From the NCBI RefSeq assembly GCF_000803625.1, contig NZ_CP007496.1:150001-182000 (forward strand): 32,000 nucleotides of DNA. Direction: 5' to 3'. The notes beneath the pieces were generated by a model. It was not told the origin of the DNA. It made no database searches and worked only from the letters and a program-made list of their open reading frames with translations. Each line of letters opens with the position of its first letter. Position 1 is the stretch's first letter. The position numbers and the translations under genes were made by a program. Source of the DNA: Candidatus Nanosynbacter lyticus. Lineage in GTDB: Bacteria > Patescibacteriota > Saccharimonadia > Saccharimonadales > Saccharimonadaceae. Of this stretch, positions 1 to 31,868 are shown one piece after another.

Positions 1-2
1 CG

Positions 3-1010
3 CTAACGCCTACGTCGTTATCAACTCCAGGGCGAACCATCGGGGACTCAGCAATTAAATTACGTGCCGAATATGCAAAAAAGGGTAGCGCGGTGACATG
101 TTCAGCAGTTAATGGGGCGGCTTGGCGGGCTATTAATGGAGCGGCAAAACTTAGGTACGCCACAAACGGTCCAGCAGATGGTACGGCTATAACTAAGATT
201 TCAGATGATCCAGCATTACCAGATAATACCGTTGGTACGCGCCCGCAGACGATTGTCAGAAAGAATAGTCCCTGGACAACGTTTGTGAATACCCAAGATA
301 TAGCTGCTGGCGAAGTGGGGGTTTGGGATTTGGTACTGGCTGATAGGGGTCTTGATAGGAATGAAAATTATTGTGTTCGTTTAGTTACAGACACTACTGC
401 TGCGCCGGGCACCAGTGTTGATACGTATGATGTATACCCAGAGTTTAAGACGGCCCCTGGGTCGCTGGATCTTCGTTTTGCGAACAGCGCGGGAACAACA
501 GTGGTTAATCCAACCGCGAGATTTGCTGATGCGACCACGAGCAGAAACAGTGTAATCACGGGCGCTTCTCTATCGGACTCTAATTCAAAGCAAATTGAGG
601 TGGTCAATACGCAGACTGATGCTGGATGGAGTGTGGTGTTATCGGCTTCTAATGGGTCGACTGCTCGCTGGCAGCAGTCAGGTGGCACGAAGTCCTACAT
701 GTTCAATGGCAATAGTGACACCCAAGGGTTCTTGTCGGTTAAGTTTGCGGCTGCCTCTGTCATCACGTCGGGCAATTCATTGAGTGGATCGTCGTGTAAC
801 ACTAGTGGTGTACAAAAGGGTTCTGATTTGCAATTCCAAGCGGGAGGAGCAAATGCAAATAGTATTACGCTGATGAGCAGCAGTAGTTCAACCGGTCAGT
901 TAGGCTGTGCATTTTTATTGCGTAATGTTAGGCTAAACCAGACTATTCCGGCATATCAGAGTCCTGGCGTGTATAATTTACCAATGACATTAACGGTGAC
1001 GGCGCAGTAG
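3..1010 (+). CDS. Surface/secreted protein, 5' end outside window; C-terminal ~180-aa WxL-like domain
   Basis: This reading frame is open from nt 3, with no stop before the GTG at 93 used by the ORF track. No signal peptide follows position 93, so the gene starts upstream of the window. The part encoded by ~459-1007 aligns by eye with the mature 1770-2399 protein (GW[ST].L, GGKSY.[FY]NG, IPA..Q.G.Y.LPMT.TV). Stop is TAG at 1008-1010. Confidence 0.6.
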   Translation, partial: LTPTSLSTPGRTIGDSAIKLRAEYAKKGSAVTCSAVNGAAWRAINGAAKLRYATNGPADGTAITKISDDPALPDNTVGTRPQTIVRKNSPWTTFVNTQDIAAGEVGVWDLVLADRGLDRNENYCVRLVTDTTAAPGTSVDTYDVYPEFKTAPGSLDLRFANSAGTTVVNPTARFADATTSRNSVITGASLSDSNSKQIEVVNTQTDAGWSVVLSASNGSTARWQQSGGTKSYMFNGNSDTQGFLSVKFAAASVITSGNSLSGSSCNTSGVQKGSDLQFQAGGANANSITLMSSSSSTGQLGCAFLLRNVRLNQTIPAYQSPGVYNLPMTLTVTAQ

Positions 1011-1018
1011 GGGGTGTG

Positions 1019-1711
1019 ATGAGCAGAGTAAAAAAATTATTCACTACTATCACACTACTTGTTGCAGTGAGTATTCCTTCATCGGTTTTTGCGACTGCAG
1101 ATTCGACGTTGTCGCAGGTGATTCGGGATATTGATTGTACACACACTACACTGGAGAACGGTAATCAATTAAATCATCCAGATTGTCAAATCTTTGCACC
1201 AAAGTTTATGAAGCTCGATTTGGTGGATAAGAAACATCCAGTTTTATATGGCGTATATGATGCGGTCCATACAGTCACTAATCCCATAACAGGTCAACAT
1301 AATCTGACGGTGGAGTTTAACGGGCGGACGTTTGTATTGGGGCGAGATAGTGAGCTTCGGGTGAATGGTAACGTTTGGACATTAGATTTCTCAAATTGGC
1401 AAAATGACCATCCAGGGGACAATTTTATGCCACTAACTCCAGGCCATACTTATAATGGGCGAGCTACAGCCAGGATGAAGGCTAGTCCTTCATCGCCAGA
1501 GGTAACCCAGTTTGCTGATTTTTCAGTCACTATTCCAAAACAAACTATTGGGGAGATTATTGCTATTCCGAATATATTTAAGAAAGTCGGCCGAGTTTTA
1601 GCGAGTACGGGCGTTAGCATGTGGCTAATGATTGTCATTAGTGCCACCGCAATTTTTGTAGCATCTATTCTGCTGTTGATTCATAAAAAAGAAAAGGAGC
1701 GGGATGGATGA
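1019..1711 (+). CDS. Cell-wall-anchored surface protein with LAxTG-type sortase sorting signal
   Basis: The ATG at 1019 is 8 nt after the upstream stop and is preceded by GGGG. The N-terminal signal peptide is MSRVKKLFTTITLLVAVSIPSSVFATA. The C-terminus is LASTG, then a hydrophobic stretch (VSMWLMIVISATAIFVASILLLI), then a basic tail (HKKEKERDG), which is the tripartite sortase signal. Confidence 0.65.
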   Translation: MSRVKKLFTTITLLVAVSIPSSVFATADSTLSQVIRDIDCTHTTLENGNQLNHPDCQIFAPKFMKLDLVDKKHPVLYGVYDAVHTVTNPITGQHNLTVEFNGRTFVLGRDSELRVNGNVWTLDFSNWQNDHPGDNFMPLTPGHTYNGRATARMKASPSSPEVTQFADFSVTIPKQTIGEIIAIPNIFKKVGRVLASTGVSMWLMIVISATAIFVASILLLIHKKEKERDG

Positions 1712-1769
1712 AGAAATAAGCGTAATAGTTTACGATAAACAAATTAAATTCACAAAACAAGGAGGGAAA

Positions 1770-2399
1770 ATGAAAAAATTAAAATTATTGGCAGCTGTCG
1801 GATTCGGAGCAGTTAGCTTTGCTGGATTAGCTGGCTCTGCTGTTTATGCGGCGAATACCGCCAACTCTACTTTGACTCAAACAATTAATGCCGGCGCATT
1901 AAGTACTGATATCCGTAACTCAAGCAATGCGGTTGTCAGTAACCCAACATTTGCGATGGGTGCCGTGACATTGTCTACGTCAGCTCAGACCTCAACAGGT
2001 ACGTTTGGTGAAAATGACAAGCGTATTTCCGTTGATAACCCTGGCGGTGCTAATAACGGCTGGACGCTGACCTTGAACGCAACCACTCCAGGTACTGGCA
2101 AATGGACAGACGGTGGCAAAAGCTACAAATATAACGGTACTGCCGCTGATGGTCGTCTAACGGTTGATCCATCAACTGGCACAGTTACTCCGGTAATTGG
2201 TACAGCTACTGGTATCACTAAAGGTAGTTCAATGGCGTTTTCTGGTAGCAACCCAGTTACGCTAATGAGTGCCTCAGCGGGTGCCGATGCTGTCTGGAAT
2301 GGCTACATCACAGGTGTTAGCTTGAAACAAGATATTCCAGCTGGTCAGCAAGCAGGTACATACACCTTGCCAATGACACAAACTGTTGCTGCTATCTAA
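1770..2399 (+). CDS. Secreted WxL-like domain protein (paralog of the C-terminus of the 3-1010 product)
   Basis: I prefer the ATG at 1770, preceded by GGAGGG at 1761-1766, over the ORF-track start at 1704. Signal peptide is MKKLKLLAAVGFGAVSFAGLAGSAVYA. It has a GWTLTL motif (WxL motif 1) and the C-terminal AGTYTLPMTQTVAAI. Confidence 0.7.
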   Translation: MKKLKLLAAVGFGAVSFAGLAGSAVYAANTANSTLTQTINAGALSTDIRNSSNAVVSNPTFAMGAVTLSTSAQTSTGTFGENDKRISVDNPGGANNGWTLTLNATTPGTGKWTDGGKSYKYNGTAADGRLTVDPSTGTVTPVIGTATGITKGSSMAFSGSNPVTLMSASAGADAVWNGYITGVSLKQDIPAGQQAGTYTLPMTQTVAAI

Positions 2400-2416
2400 A
2401 TAGTTAAGACATTTAT

Positions 2417-2448
2417 AAAAACGGGCACCCCTGCGGATGTCCGTTTTA
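2417..2448 (+). terminator. Intrinsic terminator after the WxL-like gene
   Basis: Stem ACGGGCA (2421-2427) pairs with TGTCCGT (2438-2444), including one G-U pair. It is flanked by AAAA upstream and TTTT (2445-2448) downstream. Confidence 0.5.
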
Positions 2449-2483
2449 ATTTGCGTAAGACAGTAGTCATAAGCAGATTATCT

Positions 2484-2492
2484 TGGTATAAT
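2484..2492 (+). promoter_or_regulatory. Extended -10 promoter TGGTATAAT for the 2519 gene
   Basis: TGn plus TATAAT, 26 nt upstream of the ATG at 2519. SD AAGGAGGG lies at 2509-2516. Confidence 0.5.
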
Positions 2493-2518
2493 AGGTAGTA
2501 TAGTTTGTAAGGAGGGTT

Positions 2519-3505
2519 ATGAATAGTTTATTGTGGCGTAAAATAGTTGGAGCAGCTATTATTGTAGGGCTGATTTTACCCGCGTCAGTATCCGCTGCGG
2601 GAATTGGTGGTCGGCCAGCTAATCCAGATCCAAACAACCCGAGGACCCAATCAATTTTTATATACAATCTATCTGGTGGCGCCGCAAAATCAGATCAACT
2701 ACATCTTCAGAATGGACTAGATGAAAAAGCAACGGTTGAGGTTTATGCGGTTGATGGCACGGTAACGGCGACTGGTGATATGACCTGCAAGCAAAAAGTG
2801 GAGGATAAGGTTGACGCTGGTAAATGGGTTAGCATCCCTAAACAGGAGATAACGCTCGAGGCAAAGGAAAGTAAGCTGGTGGACTTTACGGTTAGGGTTC
2901 CTAGTAAGGTGGATGTTGGTGAACATAACGCCTGCATTGTTGTGCAGCGTAAAAATACTCAACCTGTAGCAACGGGCGGCGTCCAGGTACAAACCCGTCA
3001 GGCGATTCGCATGGCGATAGTTGTTCCTGGAAATATTCATCGTGATGTGACAATTGATAAATTTGATATTAAGAATGAAAACGGTAATCAGTTGTATGAA
3101 ATTGCGCTGAAGAATTCTGGTAATGTATCTGCTGATGTCGATATTAAATTGGTAGTCAAGGATGCGGCAGGTAATGTTGTTTATAAGAATGGTGGCGTAA
3201 ATGCAACGATTGCTAATGAAATACGTCAATTCCGCTATGAAAGTAAGCTGGCGCCTTTCTGGGGAGGTAAATATAAAGCAGAGCTCTCGATTTCTTACAA
3301 GAAAAAGGCTGGCGAATGGGGGATTGGTCAGAATCAGAGTGAACTAATAACGAAGGACATTGAGCCCAAAGAACTGTTTTTCTGGCCGTCAATTATGGCT
3401 TTGGCGATAATTGGTGGCGCCTTGTTGTTGGTTATTCTGCTATTGATTGGCTTTATTGTCGCAATTAAGCGCCGCAAAAAATCAGTTAAATTTGGTAATC
3501 GTTAG
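2519..3505 (+). CDS. DUF916/DUF3324-like (WxL-locus-associated) surface protein with C-terminal membrane anchor
   Basis: It has a signal peptide followed by two beta-rich modules. The first resembles DUF916 (PANPDPNNPRTQSIFIYNLSGG...ATVEVYAVDG). The second resembles DUF3324 (DVTIDKFDIKNENGNQLYEIALKNSGN...GGKYKAELSISY). A C-terminal TM helix and KRRKK tail follow. Confidence 0.6.
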   Translation: MNSLLWRKIVGAAIIVGLILPASVSAAGIGGRPANPDPNNPRTQSIFIYNLSGGAAKSDQLHLQNGLDEKATVEVYAVDGTVTATGDMTCKQKVEDKVDAGKWVSIPKQEITLEAKESKLVDFTVRVPSKVDVGEHNACIVVQRKNTQPVATGGVQVQTRQAIRMAIVVPGNIHRDVTIDKFDIKNENGNQLYEIALKNSGNVSADVDIKLVVKDAAGNVVYKNGGVNATIANEIRQFRYESKLAPFWGGKYKAELSISYKKKAGEWGIGQNQSELITKDIEPKELFFWPSIMALAIIGGALLLVILLLIGFIVAIKRRKKSVKFGNR

Positions 3506-3535
3506 TATTTTAGCAGGGTTGGAAATAAAAATATC

Positions 3536-3564
3536 TTGGGATTTTGGTAAAAACGCGCTACAAT
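3536..3564 (+). promoter_or_regulatory. Sigma-70-type promoter for the ileS leader (TTGGGA-17-TACAAT)
   Basis: -35 TTGGGA at 3536-3541, a 17-nt spacer, and -10 TACAAT at 3559-3564. The predicted leader of ~270 nt is typical for a T-box. Confidence 0.5.
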
Positions 3565-3570
3565 GTGAGT

Positions 3571-3822
3571 AGGGCGTTTTTGCGTGTGTCTGAGGAGGTT
3601 TTTCTCTGATGAAGCCAACGCAAAATGAGCGGCTATCAACCGCGAAGTCTGCGGGAAGAAATCGGTATGATTTTGAATCAGCTGAGATTAGACCCCGCCG
3701 CGACTCACTGCGACAAAGTGAACAATTAAGCGCTAAAAGAATCACTTCTTTTGGAATCGAGATGGTACCGTCCGTTTGAAACACCTCCAGCGGATTCTCG
3801 AAATCAAAAGAGGTGATTTTTA
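3571..3822 (+). promoter_or_regulatory. T-box leader riboswitch (tRNA-Ile specifier ATC) with terminator/antiterminator
   Basis: T-box core AATCGAGATGGTACCG lies at 3755-3770. The antiterminator has helix A1 at 3758-3762/3796-3800, the 7-nt bulge TGGTACC at 3763-3769, and helix A2 at 3770-3774/3791-3795. The competing terminator pairs CACCTC (3782-3787) with GAGGTG (3810-3815), followed by T5 at 3817-3821. ATC followed by A lies at 3635-3638. It sits directly upstream of ileS. Confidence 0.8.
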
Positions 3823-3842
3823 TATTTAAATAAGGAGATACA

Positions 3843-6800
3843 ATGAAATTCAAACACGGCACACGCCGCCGGGCGGCAGAATACGAAAAGGATTGGGTGC
3901 AGCGATGGAAGGACGATCAGACGTTTGAAAAGTCGGTGGCACAGCGGTCGGCAGATAATGCCTACGTTTTTTATGACGGGCCACCGTTTATTACTGGCGT
4001 ACCGCATCATGGTACGTTACTGAGCTCAATCGTCAAGGACGCCGTGCCGCGTTACTGGACGATGAAAGGCAAGCGCGTGGAGCGCCGCTGGGGGTGGGAT
4101 TGCCATGGCCTACCGGCAGAGAATTTCGTCGAAAAGCAGATGAATATCGTGGACCGGCGGCAGATTGTGGCGAGTAGTGATCAGCCAGCGCCGCTGGATA
4201 AAGACGGTAATCCTTTGCCAACCATCAGCCTGGAAAAATACATCATCAAGGCGCGCGAAAGCATGGTAGCGAACAGCGAAACCTGGCAGGGCGTGATCGA
4301 TCGAATCGGCCGCTGGGTAGACTTTACGGGTGCCTACCGCACTATGGACAAGGACTTTATGGAGAGCGTCTGGTGGGCCTTTAAGCAGTTGTATGAGGCT
4401 GGCAAAATCTACGAAGGCGAAAAGGTACTGATGTACGACACGAAGTTTGCTACCCCTGTCAGCAAGGCCGAAGTGACCATGGACAACGACGCCTACCAAA
4501 CGGTGACCGACCCGAGTGTGTATGTGAAGTTTAAGCTGCCTGATGAAGACGTTGCTGTTTTGGCTTGGACTACCACGCCATGGACATTGCCAGCTAACCT
4601 GATGTTGGCCGTCAATCCGGAGATGACGTATTGCGAAGTGCTGGTGGGGGGTGAAAAGCTCATTATCGCCGAAGAAGCCCTCGAGCGCACCCTGCAGGAC
4701 GAAAAGCATCAGCCGCTTGATTACAAAGTATTACGCAAATTCCCCGGTAGCGAATTGGTGGGTAAAACCTATCAGTCGCTCGATACGGGCTCGGCCTGGC
4801 CAGATAACGACAAGATCCACACCATTTACGCGGCGGATTTCGTCTCGCACGAGTCAGGTACGGGCATCGTGCACATCGCGCCGGCTTATGGTGAGGACGA
4901 CTTTGAGCTGGCCAAACGCCACGGCATTAGTGCCTTCCATGTCATTGATGATAACGGCTACTATACCGATGGCAATTACAAAGGCCTCGAGGTGTGGGAT
5001 AATAACAAGTTCATCGCCAAAGACCTGAAGGAAAAGGGCGCGGTGTGGAAGATCGAGTACATTCGTCACGAATACCCGTTCAACCCGCGTAGCAAACAGC
5101 GCATCATGTACCGGGCCATCCCCAGCTGGTTCTTTGACATTCAGGGGCAAAAGCCGCTGATGCTGGAGCAGAACGAGCATATTAATTGGTTCCCGGCTCA
5201 TCTGAAACATGGTCGTTTTGCCAAAAATATCGAGCAGGCACCAGACTGGAACCTGAGCCGTGACCGCTTCTGGGCGACGGCTATGCCAGTGTGGAAGGGT
5301 GACCGCGGCACGGTGAGGGTGGTTGGCTCGTATGCGGAGCTGAAGGAATTGAGCGGCGTGGAGCTGGATGATTATCACCGCCCGTGGGTGGATGACATTA
5401 CTTTTGAAATCGACGGCGAAACGTTTACCCGCATTGATAAGGTACTGGACTGTTGGTTTGAGAGCGGTAGTATGCCGTTTGCCCAGCTACATTATCCGTT
5501 TGAAAACCAGGCCAAGTTTGAGCAGAATTACCCAGCGGATTTCATCGTTGAGTACATTGGCCAAGTGCGGGCATGGTTTTACTATGTACATGCTGTCAAC
5601 GCCGCCTTGGCCGAAATCGGTGCCTTTGGCGAGGCTGGCGCGCAGCACAAAAACGCCTACAGTAATGTCATCACTACTGGTGTGGTGGCGGGCAATGACG
5701 GCCGCAAGATGAGTAAATCCCTGGGTAACTTTACTGATCCGAACGAGCTGATGGATAAGTTTAGTGCTGATTCCTTACGCTTCCTATTACTGAGTAGCCC
5801 GCTACTTAACGGCGAGGACTTTGCTCTGCATGACAAGGACGTAGGTGATGTGGCACGCAAGCTCAGTATGATTTGGAATATGTATGATTTCTTTACCATG
5901 TACGCGGAGGTTGACGGCTGGGAATTTGATGGTGAATTGAGAGATCCACTCAGTGATCTGACCAACCCGCTTGATATCTGGATCGTCAGTCGGCTGCATC
6001 AGTTGGTGGCAGAGGTTGAGCGTCACATGGATACCTACAATATTCCTGATGCGCTGAGCCCGATTTTGCCATTCCTGGATGACGCGTCCAACTGGTACGT
6101 TCGTCGCGGTCGCCGCCGCTTCTGGAAGTCTGAAGATGATGGCGATAAGAACGATGCTTACCGGACGCTGCATTATGTTCTGGTGTGTCTGAGCTACATT
6201 TTGGCGCCATTTACACCGTTTTTGGCTGAGGAGTTGTATCACAATTTGACAGGTGATGATGAGTCGATTCATTTGAAGGATTGGCTGCCAGCAGGTGAAA
6301 TCAATAGAGCAATATTGCGTGATATGAATGCTTTGCGCGTTGCCGTGAATGACGGCTTGTCGAAGCGCGCCGCAGCTGGAATTAAGGTTCGTCAGCCACT
6401 AGCGTCCGCCAAGCTTGTCAGTACTATTTCTGGTAATACAACTGATGAAGTCAGGCAGTTCTTAGTTGATGTTGCGTGTGACGAGTTGAACGTTAAATCA
6501 GTAGAAGTTGCCACCGACTCAGAGCTTGAGGTTAATGAATCATCAGTACAGCCAAGCGTTGTCTATGATTTCGTCATTACTCCTGAACTGAAGCGTGAAG
6601 GATTGGTGCGTGAGATTATTCGCCACGTCCAGAGCGCACGTAAGAAAGCTGGGCTGCAGGTAGACGATCGGATTGAGCTTGCTATTTTTAGTGCGGATAC
6701 AGAAATTACTCAAGCTATCAATACGTTTGCCGAAGTTATTACTGCCGAGACATTGGCTGTAAAATTAGACTCTACAGTAAATGATGCGGAAAAATATGAC

Positions 6801-12476: not shown

Positions 12477-13241
12477 ATGGAGTTACTAAAAACAGTTAAA
12501 CGCAGGACATTTTGGAGTGAACTGGTTTACTATGTCTTAAATATTGGCTTAGCGGCGGTACTATTTGCTATTGCCCAGACTATTCAGTCGCCATATCCAG
12601 CATTAGCGCTTGTTGTGCTGAGTAAATGGCGCATAATCGCCGTACGGCCACGTTTTTGGTGGGCAAACATGCAGGCTAATTTGGTTGATTTAACTGTTGG
12701 TGTCGGCGTGGTTGGCTTGATGTATTTATCTACGTCAAGTTTATATTTCCGAGCTTTCTTAGCGGTACTCTACGCTATTTGGCTGATTGTAATTAAGCCA
12801 ATGTCGAAGCGTTGGCAAGTGGCTTTGCAGTCAGCTATCGCTATTTTTATTGGGGTTACCGCACTAATGGCCGTATCTTATGATTGGCCAGTTTCTGTGG
12901 TCGTTTTCCTAATGTTCTTAATCGGCTATAGTACGGCACGTCATTTCCTACACAGCTACGACGAGAGACAAACTGTACTATTGTCTGCAATTTGGGGGGT
13001 CGTCTTTGCTGAATTAGGCTGGTTGGCTTATCATTGGGCGTTTGTCTACGGTGGTTTGTTATTCGGTGGTGTTCCGCAAATTACCATAATTTTGCTGTTG
13101 CTATCGCTCGTTACCAGCAAGGCTTATCAGTCGTATAAAAAGCATAAAATTGTTCGTTTTTCAGATATATCCGGGCCGGTAATCCTTACAATTGCTATTA
13201 TATTCGTGATGTTTGCGTTTCTCAATTCGGTGACTATTTAA
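12477..13241 (+). CDS. Polytopic integral membrane protein of unknown function (about 8 TM segments)
   Basis: A 254-aa ORF that is hydrophobic throughout. It sits between the LCP and HtrA genes with 20-21 nt gaps. I recognise no family motif. Confidence 0.7.
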   Translation: MELLKTVKRRTFWSELVYYVLNIGLAAVLFAIAQTIQSPYPALALVVLSKWRIIAVRPRFWWANMQANLVDLTVGVGVVGLMYLSTSSLYFRAFLAVLYAIWLIVIKPMSKRWQVALQSAIAIFIGVTALMAVSYDWPVSVVVFLMFLIGYSTARHFLHSYDERQTVLLSAIWGVVFAELGWLAYHWAFVYGGLLFGGVPQITIILLLLSLVTSKAYQSYKKHKIVRFSDISGPVILTIAIIFVMFAFLNSVTI

Positions 13242-18049: not shown

Positions 18050-18084
18050 TACAAATGAGATATCCTAATTTAGGAGGAGGAATC

Positions 18085-18741
18085 ATGCAAGAGAGTTCTA
18101 CTATATATAATAAGAACATAGGTGTTAGATCGGGGTATTTAACAGGAGAAGCTCTCCGTCGTTCTAAGGAGTTGGCTATGGCGAAAGAGGTAGGGATGAT
18201 ATTAGAAAATCCTGATAAAACCGAATCTTTTGAGCTATATAATTCGGGAGAGCCAGAGCATATGATAGCGCTAGTTGGCGGTGAGTTTGGGGTTAGAATG
18301 GAGCAGACGCCGGGTAGGCCTAAAGAGGTAACTGCAAAATTATTTAGGCCTCATGAGACGATTCAAGATTCATATAGAGAAGTGTTGCTAGATATCCACA
18401 CTTCGGTTGTAGCCTTTGATGCGCGTCGTATATGCGTAGAAGATGGAGTTCCTTCGGGAGAAAAAGTTTCATTGCTATTCTTTAAGCTGTCAGCAAACGT
18501 ATCGGGTGAGCCAACTCCGCCTATGACCGTGGAAGATTTGAACCGTAAGACTAGTACTTATGGCGCCGTCGTTTCGGATAGTGGAATTGAGTATTTTGAG
18601 TTTACTGAAGATTGTGATGTTAAAAAGGTATCTTCTATAAATTCGCCTCTAGATACTAGTTTAGAAAGAATAGAGCTTAGCGAGGAATTGGAAAAATTCG
18701 TTCAATCTCGTCAAGGGGTGGTTGCCTCTGACGGTGATTAG
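18085..18741 (+). CDS. Hypothetical cytoplasmic protein (218 aa)
   Basis: A strong SD AGGAGGAGG (18072-18080) lies 4 nt before the ATG at 18085, which I prefer over the ORF-track start at 18055. I recognise no family motif and see no TM helix or signal peptide. Confidence 0.65.
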   Translation: MQESSTIYNKNIGVRSGYLTGEALRRSKELAMAKEVGMILENPDKTESFELYNSGEPEHMIALVGGEFGVRMEQTPGRPKEVTAKLFRPHETIQDSYREVLLDIHTSVVAFDARRICVEDGVPSGEKVSLLFFKLSANVSGEPTPPMTVEDLNRKTSTYGAVVSDSGIEYFEFTEDCDVKKVSSINSPLDTSLERIELSEELEKFVQSRQGVVASDGD

Positions 18742-21443: not shown

Positions 21444-21998
21444 ATGTTTGATACAAACCCTTATGAAGAGAAAATGAATGCCGCATTTGGCTTTTTCCAA
21501 GATGAATTGAAGAAAGTTCGAACGGGCCGAGCGCATGCTGGAATGTTGGATGGTGTTATGGTTGAGGCTTATGGTACAAAAATGCCGCTTAATCAAGTGG
21601 CTAATATTACTGCACCAGAAGCTCAGATGCTGCTGGTGACGCCATTTGATCCAGGAAATATTACTGCAATTACTTCTGCAATTCGCGACAACCAGAGTCT
21701 AGGATTTAATCCGTCTGACGATGGGCGAGTGGTGCGCGTGCCAGTTCCAGCCTTAACTGAAGAGCGTCGTCGTCAGCTAGTAAAACAGGTGAGCGAGAAG
21801 GTTGAGGAAGCCCGAATTGCGATGCGAAATATTCGTCAGGATGCATTAAAGGACGCCAAGCGAATGAAGGATGCAAAAGAGCTAAGCGAAGATGACTTGA
21901 AGTTGGTCGAGAAGGAAGTTGATAGCTTAATGAGTAAAATGCAGGCGCAAATTGATGAGGCGTTTAAGGCGAAGGAAAAGGACGTCTTGACTGTTTAA
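21444..21998 (+). CDS. frr: Ribosome recycling factor
   Basis: MFDTNPYEEKMNAAFGFFQDELKKVRTGRAHAGMLDGVMVEAYG. I prefer the ATG at 21444 with its SD over the TTG at 21432. Confidence 0.95.
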   Translation: MFDTNPYEEKMNAAFGFFQDELKKVRTGRAHAGMLDGVMVEAYGTKMPLNQVANITAPEAQMLLVTPFDPGNITAITSAIRDNQSLGFNPSDDGRVVRVPVPALTEERRRQLVKQVSEKVEEARIAMRNIRQDALKDAKRMKDAKELSEDDLKLVEKEVDSLMSKMQAQIDEAFKAKEKDVLTV

Positions 21999-22417
21999 TG
22001 AGCGAAACTTTTGCTGATAGAGTAAAAGAGTTGGGGCTGCCTCTTGAGCAGATTATTGTTATTGGCAGTGGTATTTTAGACCAATTAGGAATTCGTCGGG
22101 CTGAAGATGTTGATATTGCAGCGAGCTCTGAGTTGATAAAAAAACTTTCTAAAGATTATGGCGATTGGACCAGAAAACTTGATGGTAATCAGCGTCCGTA
22201 TTTTGTAAAGACTGATGGTTCGGCTGAGCTGTGGGACGGTTGGGAGTTTGACGGTCAGGTTGTTGGTTATGACGATTTATTGAGCCATTCAGTGGTGTAT
22301 GATAACGTTAGGTTCGTTAATCTGGAATTTCTACGAAGATGGAAAAATTGGCGCGGGCGAGAAAAAGATATTCGAGATGTTGAATTAATTGATGAGTGGA
22401 GGGTGAGAAATGAATAG
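21998..22417 (+). CDS. Nucleotidyltransferase-fold (Pol-beta superfamily-like) protein, function unknown
   Basis: GSGILDQLGIRRAEDVDI fits the hG[GS]x9-13Dh[DE]h motif (22064-22117). The C-terminus carries GREKDIRDVELI. It overlaps the frr stop (TAATG) and the uppS start (ATGAATAG). Confidence 0.65.
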   Translation: MSETFADRVKELGLPLEQIIVIGSGILDQLGIRRAEDVDIAASSELIKKLSKDYGDWTRKLDGNQRPYFVKTDGSAELWDGWEFDGQVVGYDDLLSHSVVYDNVRFVNLEFLRRWKNWRGREKDIRDVELIDEWRVRNE

Positions 22418-31259: not shown

Positions 31260-31868
31260 ATGTCTAGGATAGGCTATGAAGGAGAGGGTGTTCCTGATCA
31301 CCTACAAAATAAGACCATTGAAACGATGTTTCCCGACACACTTTACGTGCCGGCTGTCGATTCTTTTACAGACATGAATGAGATATTTTATATTGATAAA
31401 AATCAAGCTAGTGGTTTGGGTAGGTTGGTTGTCGATGGTAGGCAGGATCTAAGATTGGTCGAGTCGGACGATTCGTTGGATGAGATGGTTGTATTGATGA
31501 AGGTGTGGGTGCAGGACAGTAAAGGGGAATTGCGCGAATATATTATTGCGGATTGCCGATATTGTGATGATCAATTTGACTTGATTGGTGATGATTCGGA
31601 AGTTGACTTTACTGACCAGGAAACCGCTTGGGGTGAGATTGACTATATGCAACATCGGGTTACAGTTTCTGCGGTAATTGACAATATAGATAAGGGAAAA
31701 ATTGGAGTTTGGGGCGATCCAGATCTTTATGATACTGCAATACACATGGCAAGGGTGGTGGACGAAGCGGTTAGTGGTCGCGACCGTGCTGCGATTTCGG
31801 AGGTTTCTGGAAAAGAGGATGGTACTAGTCAGCTAAAGTTAAGAACGAGGGATTCGCAGCAGGATTAG
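31260..31868 (+). CDS. Hypothetical acidic cytoplasmic protein (202 aa)
   Basis: A long ORF with its own promoter and SD. I recognise no motif and see no TM helix or signal peptide. Confidence 0.6.
   Translation: MSRIGYEGEGVPDHLQNKTIETMFPDTLYVPAVDSFTDMNEIFYIDKNQASGLGRLVVDGRQDLRLVESDDSLDEMVVLMKVWVQDSKGELREYIIADCRYCDDQFDLIGDDSEVDFTDQETAWGEIDYMQHRVTVSAVIDNIDKGKIGVWGDPDLYDTAIHMARVVDEAVSGRDRAAISEVSGKEDGTSQLKLRTRDSQQD

Follow-up and report, generated by a model that had tools for sequence, protein, structure and literature searches.

The best described relatives of the locus reported here are the WxL or Csc clusters of the Lactobacillales and Bacillales, in which four roles have been distinguished: CscA, the WxL-interacting protein or WxLIP, which carries DUF916 and DUF3324 domains; CscB, the small WxL protein; CscC, the large WxL protein; and CscD, a small protein with an LPxTG motif (Siezen 2006; Hassan & Williamson 2022; Hassan et al. 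2023). In the classical system, insertion of a strand has been described from the solved complex of a WxLIP with a long WxL domain from E. faecium, as well as from earlier AlphaFold work.

Here we present an analysis of four genes at the left edge of a window of 32,000 nt (the whole stretch of DNA that was analysed), which shares 89% identity with Ca. Minimicrobia vallesae. The source organism is a Saccharibacterium, epibiotic and with a reduced genome, as an earlier note made from the sequence had suspected. With a probability of roughly 70%, we read the four genes as a WxL/Csc cell-surface locus in its Saccharibacteria form, a conserved core locus that is passed on vertically.

Composition and genomic setting

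All four ORFs lie on the same strand, with the positions and features that had been described for them. They are listed here with the elements discussed below:

3..1010, + strand: g1, 3' part of its gene; C-terminal 335 aa of a secreted 'large' protein of 808 aa
459..1007, + strand: C-terminal WxL-like domain of g1, from BLASTP to g3 and the CPR-domain HMM (1.1e-35)
1016..1711, + strand: g2, secreted, 231 aa; signal peptide, ~165-aa domain and C-terminal sorting signal
1598..1711, + strand: sorting signal of g2; LASTG (nt 1598-1612, residues 195-199), hydrophobic helix and basic tail HKKEKERDG
1770..2399, + strand: g3, the 209-aa 'small' protein; signal peptide, N-terminal extension and WxL-like domain
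2061..2069, + strand: first Trp-x-Leu motif of g3, W-T-L, within VDNPGGANNGWTLTLNAT; aligns with classical v-D-x-R-G-t-x-a-G-W-x-L
2379..2387, + strand: equivalent of the second Trp-x-Leu motif in g3, Q-T-V, within GTYTLPMTQTVAAI; aligns with classical Y-s-S-T-L-T-W-x-L
2464..2492, + strand: sigma-70-like promoter match (TAGTCA, 17 nt, TATAAT, TG extension) in the 119-nt gap 5' of g4; a consensus match only, with 12 such sites found and 8 expected
2519..3505, + strand: g4, 328 aa; WxLIP with signal peptide, two beta-sandwich modules, TM helix and KRRKK tail
g4, by residue: PGBD/DUF916 ~30-175, HBD/DUF3324-like ~176-290, transmembrane helix 292-325

The earlier note had recognised the parts list of a WxL/Csc locus, and the composition indeed fits the way in which Hassan et al. 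2023 (PMC10599100) define such clusters. As in the Lactobacillales and Bacillales, the same four roles stand in one same-strand block, all with signal peptides; the WxLIP combines two Ig-like domains with a C-terminal helix; the anchor domain invariably stands at the C-terminus and has one small and one large carrier, the latter with an N-terminal binding module; and the first W-x-L motif is conserved together with the turn that precedes it. The differences are also considerable. The locus is found in Patescibacteria (Saccharibacteria) rather than Firmicutes, and as a fixed-position core locus rather than a multi-copy niche island. Its domain lies below Pfam WxL detection, the Trp of the second motif being replaced by Gln (g3) or Leu (g1), and both carriers use the same WxL1-like domain, whereas the classical clusters have a WxL1/WxL2 pair. 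Many of the orthologous WxLIPs have a LysM domain after the membrane helix. Finally, the putatively wall-anchored g2, with a folded domain and LAxTG, is much larger at 231 aa than the classical CscD proteins with LPxTG (90-140 aa), which counts against the WxL-locus reading.

A plasmid locus of Paenibacillus urinalis (NZ_CP118110) shares three core parts: a DUF916 protein, a small WxL protein and an RCC1 large carrier, the last with a weak, sub-threshold WxL match and with RCC1 regions that resemble those of g1 at the repeat level only. It differs in that its small protein scores above the Pfam WxL threshold (30.1 bits), in having no LPXTG gene, and in being plasmid-borne.

The remainder of the window encodes housekeeping functions, in agreement with the earlier description (IleRS, ParAB, RF1, S2, EF-Ts, RRF, UppS, ProRS-like, GreA, LysRS and others); no sortase gene was found within it, a further point against the WxL-locus reading. 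The block itself had been called accessory and a candidate horizontal acquisition. However, it occupies the same syntenic place, between ftsZ-nrdR-VKOR and ileS, in ~60 of 79 Saccharibacteria species genomes, and positions 1-4000 have a GC content of 42-49%, no different from the window remainder. Given the conserved synteny and the base composition, which is not atypical, neither description is supported. In our reading, the locus is inherited as a core locus of Saccharibacteria and was not recently acquired.

The WxLIP and the WxL-like domain

By Pfam, hhalign, Foldseek and family HMM, g4 is a WxLIP, as its earlier description as a DUF916/DUF3324 membrane-anchored protein implied. It scores 38.4 bits against PF06030 (WxLIP_PGBD; cut-off 27.3), and alignment with seven classical DUF916-DUF3324 proteins by hhalign is full-length, with 98.3% probability and E 1.1e-14 over 279 columns (reversed control, E 0.05). 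Its AF2 model has a pLDDT of 91.9, and the top PDB matches of this model in Foldseek were the solved E. faecium protein EfmWxLIP1, 9I25_C and 9I1Y (E 1.3e-13 to 8e-13), the former deposited as 'WxLIP from E. faecium locus A bound to long WxL'; the g4 family HMM reaches 9i25_C at E 2.4e-6. The match to EfmWxLIP1 (9I1Y alone, 9I25 with long WxL) extends over ~270 aligned columns, but sequence identity is only 15-18% and the TM-score 0.4-0.5, probably because the inter-domain angle differs. Two Cys of g4, C90 and C139, are invariant, and a lower-confidence loop at ~145-160 is followed by the conserved strand TRQAIRMAIVV.

The large protein had been seen only as a truncated gene ending in a ~180-aa domain; the full gene was recovered from contigs of 98-99% identity (L001:6066-8492). 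It encodes a signal peptide, a 7-repeat RCC1 beta-propeller between beta-rich segments (Pfam WD40_RLD 3e-89, RCC1 3e-69), and the WxL-like domain. The last ~183 aa of g1 are 32% identical to g3 (BLASTP, E 6e-17); behind its signal peptide, the secreted 209-aa protein consists of the same domain, as had been proposed. This domain forms the C-terminal end of 255 of the 261 family members, its carriers being either ~210-aa proteins or proteins of 340-1438 aa with varied N-terminal binding modules (RCC1, LamG, lectins, BNR). For g3, 384 homologues were found, those with a source name all being Saccharibacteria, and the family has 703 representatives at 50% identity. The g3 signal peptide is predicted to be cleaved after VYA, leaving the N-terminal extension NSTLTQTI. 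The second WxL motif had rightly been called degenerate: Trp-x-Leu is lost in both Q-T-V of g3, where the Q is nearly invariant, and LTV of g1, where the first motif reads GWSV; this loss tells against the WxL reading.

Here the profile-HMM check proposed in the earlier note gave a divided result, since g4 passes Pfam DUF916 whereas the Pfam WxL model has no match in g1, g3 or any of 70 relatives (72 sequences). What carries the WxL assignment is profile-profile comparison, together with the motifs and the gene context. Compared with mature classical small WxL proteins by hhalign, the domain scores 30.5-36 (E 4e-4 to 5e-5; probability 34-68% after signal peptide removal), in a full-length alignment of 141-155 collinear columns that contains both motif regions. 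Reversed templates scored 12.5-13.1 and other beta-rich families 13.8-16.8; 100 column shuffles gave 11.5 +/- 2.0 and at most 19.4, placing the domain ~9 standard deviations above the shuffle null. By these comparisons, a remote relationship of the g1/g3 domain to the small-WxL (WxL1/CscB) domain is supported.

It is very unlikely, in our judgement, that the domain is instead a Patescibacteria-specific anchor, non-homologous to WxL, that merely stands beside a DUF916 protein and resembles WxL by convergence. Besides the Pfam result and an hhalign probability below 70%, such an origin would accord with the failure of both HMM and profile to match the domain to classical large WxL or to the long WxL chain 9i25_A, the WxL2 partner bound in 9I25, and with the absence of 9i25_A among the best 50 of 436 Foldseek matches of the g3 model. 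By the same method, however, classical small WxL is itself barely relatable to solved long WxL (E 0.027 only). Convergence would also have to account for the collinear alignment and for the reciprocal ranking of the HMMs, in which the four top plasmid-ORF matches of the CPR-domain HMM are all annotated WxL proteins and the eight top Saccharibacteria-ORF matches of the classical HMM are all g3 homologues. The constant C-terminal position, the consistent presence alongside of a true WxLIP and a protein of LPXTG type, and the likeness of the mature N-termini (ETKLTQSITGG in Bacillus small WxL, NSTLTQTINAG in g3) likewise argue against it.

Proposed wall anchoring and assembly

The make-up given for g2 (signal peptide, LASTG, TM helix, basic tail) was borne out. 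The protein has no Pfam or NCBIfam match; its mature N-terminus is ADSTLSQVI, and the ~165-aa domain has two Cys, C41 and C57. Class E sortases recognise LAxTG. For this reason, and because the motif is conserved across the g2 family, we do not regard it as a degenerate LPxTG: all of 17 orthologues have L195, T198 and G199, and the variants across Saccharibacteria are LANTG, LASTG, LADTG, LSSTG and LSPTG. Class E sortase substrates of Actinobacteria likewise have LA(S/N)TG, then a hydrophobic stretch and a tail of basic residues, with the difference that the putative cognate sortase of g2 lies outside the window. A class E sortase is annotated in Southlakia epibionticum, a Saccharibacterium in culture, with the same Tn-seq class (NE/GA/GA) as the LPXTG-like protein of the DUF916/WxL-like locus there.

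We infer a physical complex at the cell surface. All four products would be exported by Sec, and g4 would be tethered to the cell's own membrane through its C-terminal helix, its DUF916 domain capturing the WxL-like domains of g3 and g1 by inserting a strand into their incomplete beta-sandwich. A class E sortase would cut g2 at LA(S/N)TG and link it covalently to peptidoglycan, providing a covalent foothold for the complex. Thus tethered and anchored, the complex would display the seven-bladed RCC1 propeller of g1 outward as a ligand-binding module; our best guess at its ligand is a component of the actinobacterial host's surface.

The same parts might be put together as a donor-strand-assembled fibre or stalk, by a chaperone-usher-like logic without the usher, a possibility that we consider doubtful. 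Here g4 would be a membrane-tethered PapD-like chaperone and g1 a two-domain tip adhesin, made of a binding module and an extension-less acceptor domain; the g3 extension STLTQTI would complete the fold of the next subunit, and g2 would donate the same extension and end the chain by its sortase link to the wall. The resemblance to chaperone-usher systems is one of fold class: both pair a PapD-like protein of two domains with an Ig-like subunit in need of a partner strand. Behind the WxLIP, the g4 model has strong matches to chaperones (E 3e-9 to 1e-6), namely CfaA (2.9e-9), CsuC (1.7e-8) and Caf1M (5.6e-7). For the g3 model (pLDDT 87.7), the best PDB matches are the pilins or donor-strand fibres FimA, CfaE, CsuA/B and CanA, with probabilities up to 0.99; among the best 50 of 436 matches (E <= 10), however, these are weak, with E at least 0.013 (0.013-0.05) and TM 0.3-0.5. 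Table S2 of Wang et al. 2023 assigns the S. epibionticum counterparts to the ECOD domains Caf1M (4b0m_M) and CsuE (6fjy_B). In every locus examined, a mature N-terminal motif, [ST]x[LF]xQxI, is common to g2 and g3, being among the most conserved parts of g3, and the g1 domain has no such LxQxI extension; two classical E. mundtii loci show the same N-terminal mimicry between LPXTG protein and small WxL. The shared motif and the chaperone-usher-like models of g3 and g4 thus suggest donor-strand assembly. On the other hand, the hhalign score for the g2/g3 N-terminus takes in some of the signal peptide, the extension lacks regular secondary structure in the monomer model, and polymerisation, here putative, is not known from any WxL system. 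Unlike chaperone-usher systems, moreover, this one has neither usher nor outer membrane, and g4 is membrane-anchored.

Possible roles at the cell surface

The host-attachment complex envisaged in the earlier note stays an inference, and one to be tempered. In published co-culture Tn-seq, SEML1_0623-0628 of S. epibionticum, a locus likened to the present one by its composition, was non-essential, and loss of its LPXTG-like protein was advantageous. By this analogy, an indispensable role in host attachment is unlikely, at least in that pair.

That the complex serves the organism's own envelope rather than host binding, in wall organisation or division, or in capture of carbohydrates or other nutrients (a role proposed for Csc clusters by Siezen et al.), appears to us unlikely. 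Such a role would suit a locus whose S. epibionticum analogue is non-essential for growth on the host, as well as the fixed position directly after ftsA-ftsZ-nrdR and a thioredoxin-like/VKOR pair, the strong conservation of g3 (60-70% identity across genera), and the LamG and lectin modules of relatives. The ftsZ neighbourhood is not kept in S. epibionticum, though, where another gene follows VKOR; the large proteins have variable N-terminal modules of adhesin- or lectin-like appearance, and the TM7x minor pilin PilX2 also bears an RCC1 propeller.

The reading that we prefer thus retains from the earlier interpretation the parts list of a WxL locus, the WxLIP and the epibiotic genome, and replaces an accessory block of putative horizontal origin by a core locus. 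Descriptions of the WxL cell-surface complex have so far been confined to lactic acid bacteria and bacilli; the present locus would probably represent a very divergent version of it in Saccharibacteria.

Genomic setting of the four-gene locus

The four genes g1-g4, taken here as a putative WxL-type cell-surface locus, are present as the earlier note had described them, as open reading frames on a single strand across positions 3..3505 of the window.

3..1010, + strand: g1, large protein, cut by the window edge
1016..1711, + strand: g2, 231 aa, with a signal peptide and, at its end, LASTG, a hydrophobic helix and a basic tail
1770..2399, + strand: g3, 209 aa, a signal peptide plus the domain common to g1 and g3
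2519..3505, + strand: g4, 328 aa, with a signal peptide, two beta-rich modules, a C-terminal helix and KRRKK

The missing part of g1 was recovered from contigs 98-99% identical to the window, on which the whole protein has 808 aa: a signal peptide, a seven-repeat RCC1 propeller (Pfam WD40_RLD 3e-89, RCC1 3e-69) and a C-terminal domain of ~183 aa.

It had been proposed that these genes form an accessory block, possibly of horizontal origin, in a window that otherwise holds housekeeping genes. The rest of the window is indeed housekeeping, but a synteny survey of 79 loci from species-representative genomes revealed the gene order ftsZ, nrdR, VKOR, g1, g2, g3, g4, ileS in ~60 of them, and the GC content of the block is unremarkable against the window; on these two grounds recent horizontal acquisition was rejected. 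The conserved order, together with 60-70% identity of g3 across genera, argues against such an acquisition. In deeper lineages g3, g4 and a large protein are kept and g2 is variable, often still between VKOR and ileS. The locus is thus core, not accessory, in Saccharibacteria. The related loci all carry a Saccharibacteria label, and the window is 89% identical to Ca. Minimicrobia vallesae. Among plasmids, the nearest non-Patescibacteria matches to the WxL-interacting protein (WxLIP) came from Actinobacteria, Deinococcus and Paenibacillus.

Several features of individual contigs were recorded in the survey. In Ca. Minimicrobia vallesae IHU2 (NZ_CP076459, labelled a complete genome; locus L025, 7211-13075) two or three ORFs stand in place of each of g2, g3 and ileS. 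All three genes are intact on every related contig, and pseudogenes are less likely here than frameshifts from assembly or sequencing. A contig from a MAG labelled Acidobacteriota (L084, 7992-9348) bears two tandem g3 homologues with 57-59% identity; the contig probably belongs to Saccharibacteria and was mis-binned. Paralogous loci exist as well: in one Saccharibacteria MAG the separate loci L079 and L083 both carry g3 homologues.

Downstream, g4 and ileS are separated by 337 nt (window 3506-3842) that hold a 56-aa ORF (3609-3779), reported by gene callers on all related contigs and with no Pfam hit on record. An Rfam search over the whole window found no family, and thus no T-box or other leader upstream of ileS. 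Four other window ORFs of 139-254 aa (12477-13241, 18055-18741, 21998-22417 and 31260-31868) had no Pfam match at E <= 0.001. Upstream, in conserved synteny, the locus directly adjoins a small protein and a VKOR homologue (L001:5115-5973); the S. epibionticum counterpart of the small protein beside VKOR is annotated as thioredoxin-like. Conserved cysteine pairs occur in g2 (C41/C57), g4 (C90/C139) and the g1 fragment (C265/C302), and none in g3. Extracytoplasmic disulfide formation may be linked to the folding of g1, g2 and g4.

The WxL-interacting protein and its predicted partners

The product of g4 is a WxL-interacting protein. Pfam PF06030 (WxLIP_PGBD, DUF916) scored 38.4 bits against a cut-off of 27.3 (E 1.4e-9), bearing out the DUF916 assignment put forward from sequence. 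PF11797 (DUF3324/HBD) did not match g4, although a second Ig-like domain after the PGBD was found both by profile alignment and in the structural model. When an alignment of 120 homologues was compared by hhalign with seven classical "DUF916 and DUF3324" proteins from plasmids of Pediococcus, Enterococcus, Bacillus, Companilactobacillus and Paenibacillus, residues 30-311 aligned with a probability of 98.3% (E 1.1e-14), against E 0.05 for the reversed control. The AlphaFold model is confident (pLDDT 91.9), with the second beta-sandwich at residues 176-290. Its best PDB matches, at E 1.3e-13 to 8e-13, were chain C of 9I25, entitled "WxLIP from Enterococcus faecium locus A bound to long WxL", and 9I1Y, on both of which it superposes across ~270 columns; the next were the chaperone-usher chaperones CfaA, CsuC and Caf1M (E 3e-9 to 8e-7). 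The family HMM also reached 9i25_C among PDB sequences (E 2.4e-6). Sequence and model agree on an N-terminal signal peptide and a C-terminal helix (292-325) followed by KRRKK.

In ~70 of the 120 Saccharibacteria WxLIP homologues a LysM domain follows the TM helix and basic stretch (proteins P0159-P0240; e.g. P0180, P0207, P0219); g4 of the window is without it. A simple N-out anchor would place this peptidoglycan-binding module on the cytoplasmic side.

The C-terminal ~180 aa of g1 and the domain of g3 had been read as one and the same WxL domain. That they are the same domain was confirmed (32% identity, E 6e-17). Membership in the Pfam WxL family was not: PF13731 gave no hit at its gathering threshold for g1, g3 or any of 70 diverse relatives, and Pfam and NCBIfam scans of g1, g2 and g3 yielded nothing usable. 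Of the two Trp-x-Leu motifs, the first is present (WTL in g3, WSV in g1), in a region where g3 reads VDNPGGANNGWTLTLNAT against the classical v-D-x-R-G-t-x-a-G-W-x-L, and the second is lost (QTV in g3, LTV in g1). Alignment of the second region of g3, GTYTLPMTQTVAAI, with the classical Y-s-S-T-L-T-W-x-L indicates that the second Trp is replaced by a nearly invariant Gln in g3.

On profile evidence, the shared domain is best described as a probable remote relative of the small WxL domain, outside Pfam WxL membership. Its mature form was compared by hhalign with the mature domains of annotated WxL proteins from plasmid loci. Against small WxL the score was 30.5-36, with E values of 4e-4 to 5e-5 and a probability of only 34-68%, over 141-155 collinear columns, covering the domain from end to end. 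The scores were 12.5-13.1 for reversed templates, 11.5 +/- 2.0 (maximum 19.4) for 100 column shuffles and 13.8-16.8 for unrelated beta-rich families, which places the small-WxL score ~9 SD over the shuffle null. An E value of 1.8e-9, obtained by global hhalign with signal peptides kept, was set aside because hydrophobic N-termini inflate the score; the comparison was recomputed on mature domains with the reversed and shuffled controls. When the shared-domain HMM was run against plasmid ORFs the top matches were annotated WxL proteins, and the reverse search gave the same picture.

Narrower comparisons were negative. BLASTP of g3 against the Paenibacillus small WxL protein detected no similarity, and an hhalign comparison between the narrow g3 alignment and one WxL sequence gave too weak a result, which improved only once both sides were broader profiles. 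Searches of PDB sequences with the g3 family profile and a broader domain profile returned chance hits only. Against classical large WxL proteins and the solved long WxL chain 9i25_A, HMM and hhalign comparisons matched the first-motif turn only, or nothing. Even the profile of classical small WxL matches 9i25_A at no better than E 0.027, so the shared domain would lie within the spread of the superfamily, on the side of WxL1/CscB, the small WxL proteins of classical clusters. A 208-aa neighbour of a DUF916 gene in Clavibacter, considered as a relative of g3, had no detectable relatedness to it.

The architecture of the family is that described for WxL proteins, with small and large carriers. 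The family comprises 703 representatives at 50% identity. The domain is flush with the protein C-terminus in 255 of 261 members and has ~180 aa, within the 160-190 aa expected of a C-terminal WxL domain. It is carried by proteins of ~210 aa and by others of 340-1438 aa, whose N-terminal parts include RCC1 propellers, LamG, DUF7483, lectin or BNR modules. Under the rule of Hassan et al. 2023, by which a WxL gene cluster holds at least one WxLIP and at least two WxL proteins within four genes, g1-g4 is such a cluster (WxLIP, small and large carrier, all adjacent) if the shared domain counts as WxL-type. Most Saccharibacteria loci long enough to show it contain all three, the small protein, the WxLIP and the large protein. 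The core composition recurs on a Paenibacillus urinalis plasmid (NZ_CP118110; locus L007, 5851-10783), where genes for a DUF916 protein and a small WxL protein are joined by one for an RCC1-repeat large carrier of 1048 aa; towards the C-terminus this carrier matches WxL weakly (20.8 bits).

The remaining member, g2, is a predicted sortase substrate of the LAxTG type. Its C-terminus consists of LASTG, 23 hydrophobic residues and HKKEKERDG; L195, T198 and G199 are invariant in 17 orthologues, and after every variant of the motif (LANTG, LASTG, LADTG, LSSTG and LSPTG) come a hydrophobic stretch and a basic tail. Class E sortases of Actinobacteria recognise LAxTG, so the signal in g2 is a regular one, not a decayed LPxTG. 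No sortase was found in the 32 kb; a class E sortase, SEML1_0711, is listed in S. epibionticum (Wang et al. 2023 supplement, PMC10633639). Classical clusters often, though not always, include CscD, a small LPxTG protein of 90-140 aa; g2, by its sorting signal a candidate for that place, is longer, with 231 aa, a folded region and two conserved cysteines.

Common N-termini and a possible donor strand

The mature N-termini of g2 (ADSTLSQVI, window 1094-1135) and g3 (NSTLTQTI, 1851-1895) are alike, and the motif [ST]x[LF]xQxI is common to both proteins in every Saccharibacteria locus examined; g1 is without it. In two classical loci of E. mundtii the LPXTG protein and the small WxL protein likewise start alike, with KEVRSVETEGEIGFTG and DEVRNVTTDGTIEFTP in one and KEVWQVETEGSISFTG and DEVRKVTTEGQIEFRP in the other.

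L011:5490-5858, LPXTG protein; L011:5863-6651, small WxL protein
L013:6287-6643, LPXTG protein; L013:6644-7444, small WxL protein

Such a shared start within each locus suggests that both proteins dock at a common site, perhaps as a donor strand. CscD proteins have been described as having no mutual similarity, with interactions "as yet unknown" (Siezen et al. 2006). The g3 model (pLDDT 87.7) gave PDB matches that were weak, all of those listed being chaperone-usher pilins or other donor-strand fibres. Taken with the common N-termini, the chaperone-usher-like folds of the g3 and g4 models raise the idea of donor-strand docking in which the wall-anchored protein gives the strand, to which we assign a probability of about one in four. 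The wider proposal, that WxL loci in Saccharibacteria and Firmicutes alike work by donor-strand assembly and form a counterpart, in monoderms, to chaperone-usher pili, is put forward as a similarly long shot. The WxLIP would then act as a membrane-tethered PapD-like chaperone, and the large protein, with an acceptor domain free of any N-terminal extension, as a tip adhesin; the small protein would bear the donor extension, and the LPXTG/LAxTG protein would serve as a wall-anchored donor strand, fixing the assembly to peptidoglycan. Donor-strand assembly would explain why, within each locus, the LPXTG protein copies the mature N-terminus of the small WxL protein; in classical loci the LPXTG protein is little besides that extension and an anchor. 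Against chaperone-usher systems, the likeness is in fold only: g4 is membrane-anchored, and no usher-like gene was found in the locus or its conserved neighbourhood. A literature search on WxL and donor-strand complementation returned nothing linking them, only an unrelated review. If true, donor-strand assembly would give Saccharibacteria a conserved stalk offering an RCC1 propeller to the host.

Possible host attachment and implications for Saccharibacteria

By analogy with the classical system, g4 would be held in the membrane by its C-terminal helix; on the same analogy, and that of the solved WxLIP-WxL complex, it would bind g1 and g3 by inserting a strand into their WxL-like domains. A class E sortase would join g2 to peptidoglycan, and the RCC1 propeller of g1 would face outward.

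The suggestion that the locus mediates host attachment needs tempering. S. epibionticum has a locus with the same parts list (SEML1_0623-0628), namely a large FN3 protein, a protein of 188 aa with a "WxL domain-containing protein" as its top Foldseek match, a DUF916 protein and an LPXTG-like protein, matched to one named "LPXTG cell wall anchor" (Wang et al. 2023, PMC10633639). This locus, on its parts list the putative counterpart of g1-g4, was non-essential in co-culture Tn-seq, and loss of either the LPXTG-like protein or the class E sortase was classed as advantageous for growth (Wang et al. 2023, PMC10633639). The two, SEML1_0625 and SEML1_0711, fall in the same unusual class, NE/GA/GA (Table S1 of Wang et al. 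2023, PMC10633639), as would fit an enzyme and its substrate. The Tn-seq data also suggest that the locus can be deleted and is therefore genetically tractable.

A literature search found no paper on WxL or DUF916 in Saccharibacteria; automated names for such proteins and the Foldseek hits in the supplementary table of Wang et al. 2023 were already present. WxL clusters have been described as essentially limited to Lactobacillales and Bacillales. A divergent Saccharibacteria family with 703 representatives and a fixed genome position would mean that the system reaches the candidate phyla radiation, and that current WxL models miss a whole branch of it. For classical loci, the N-terminal motif that LPXTG-type and small proteins have in common and the chaperone-usher-like folds hint jointly at a concrete, testable mechanism by which the complexes hold together. 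The surface proteins of Saccharibacteria epibiosis are largely uncharacterised, and the locus provides a defined, conserved four-protein module for testing: an RCC1 display protein, a sortase-anchored protein, a small carrier and a WxLIP.
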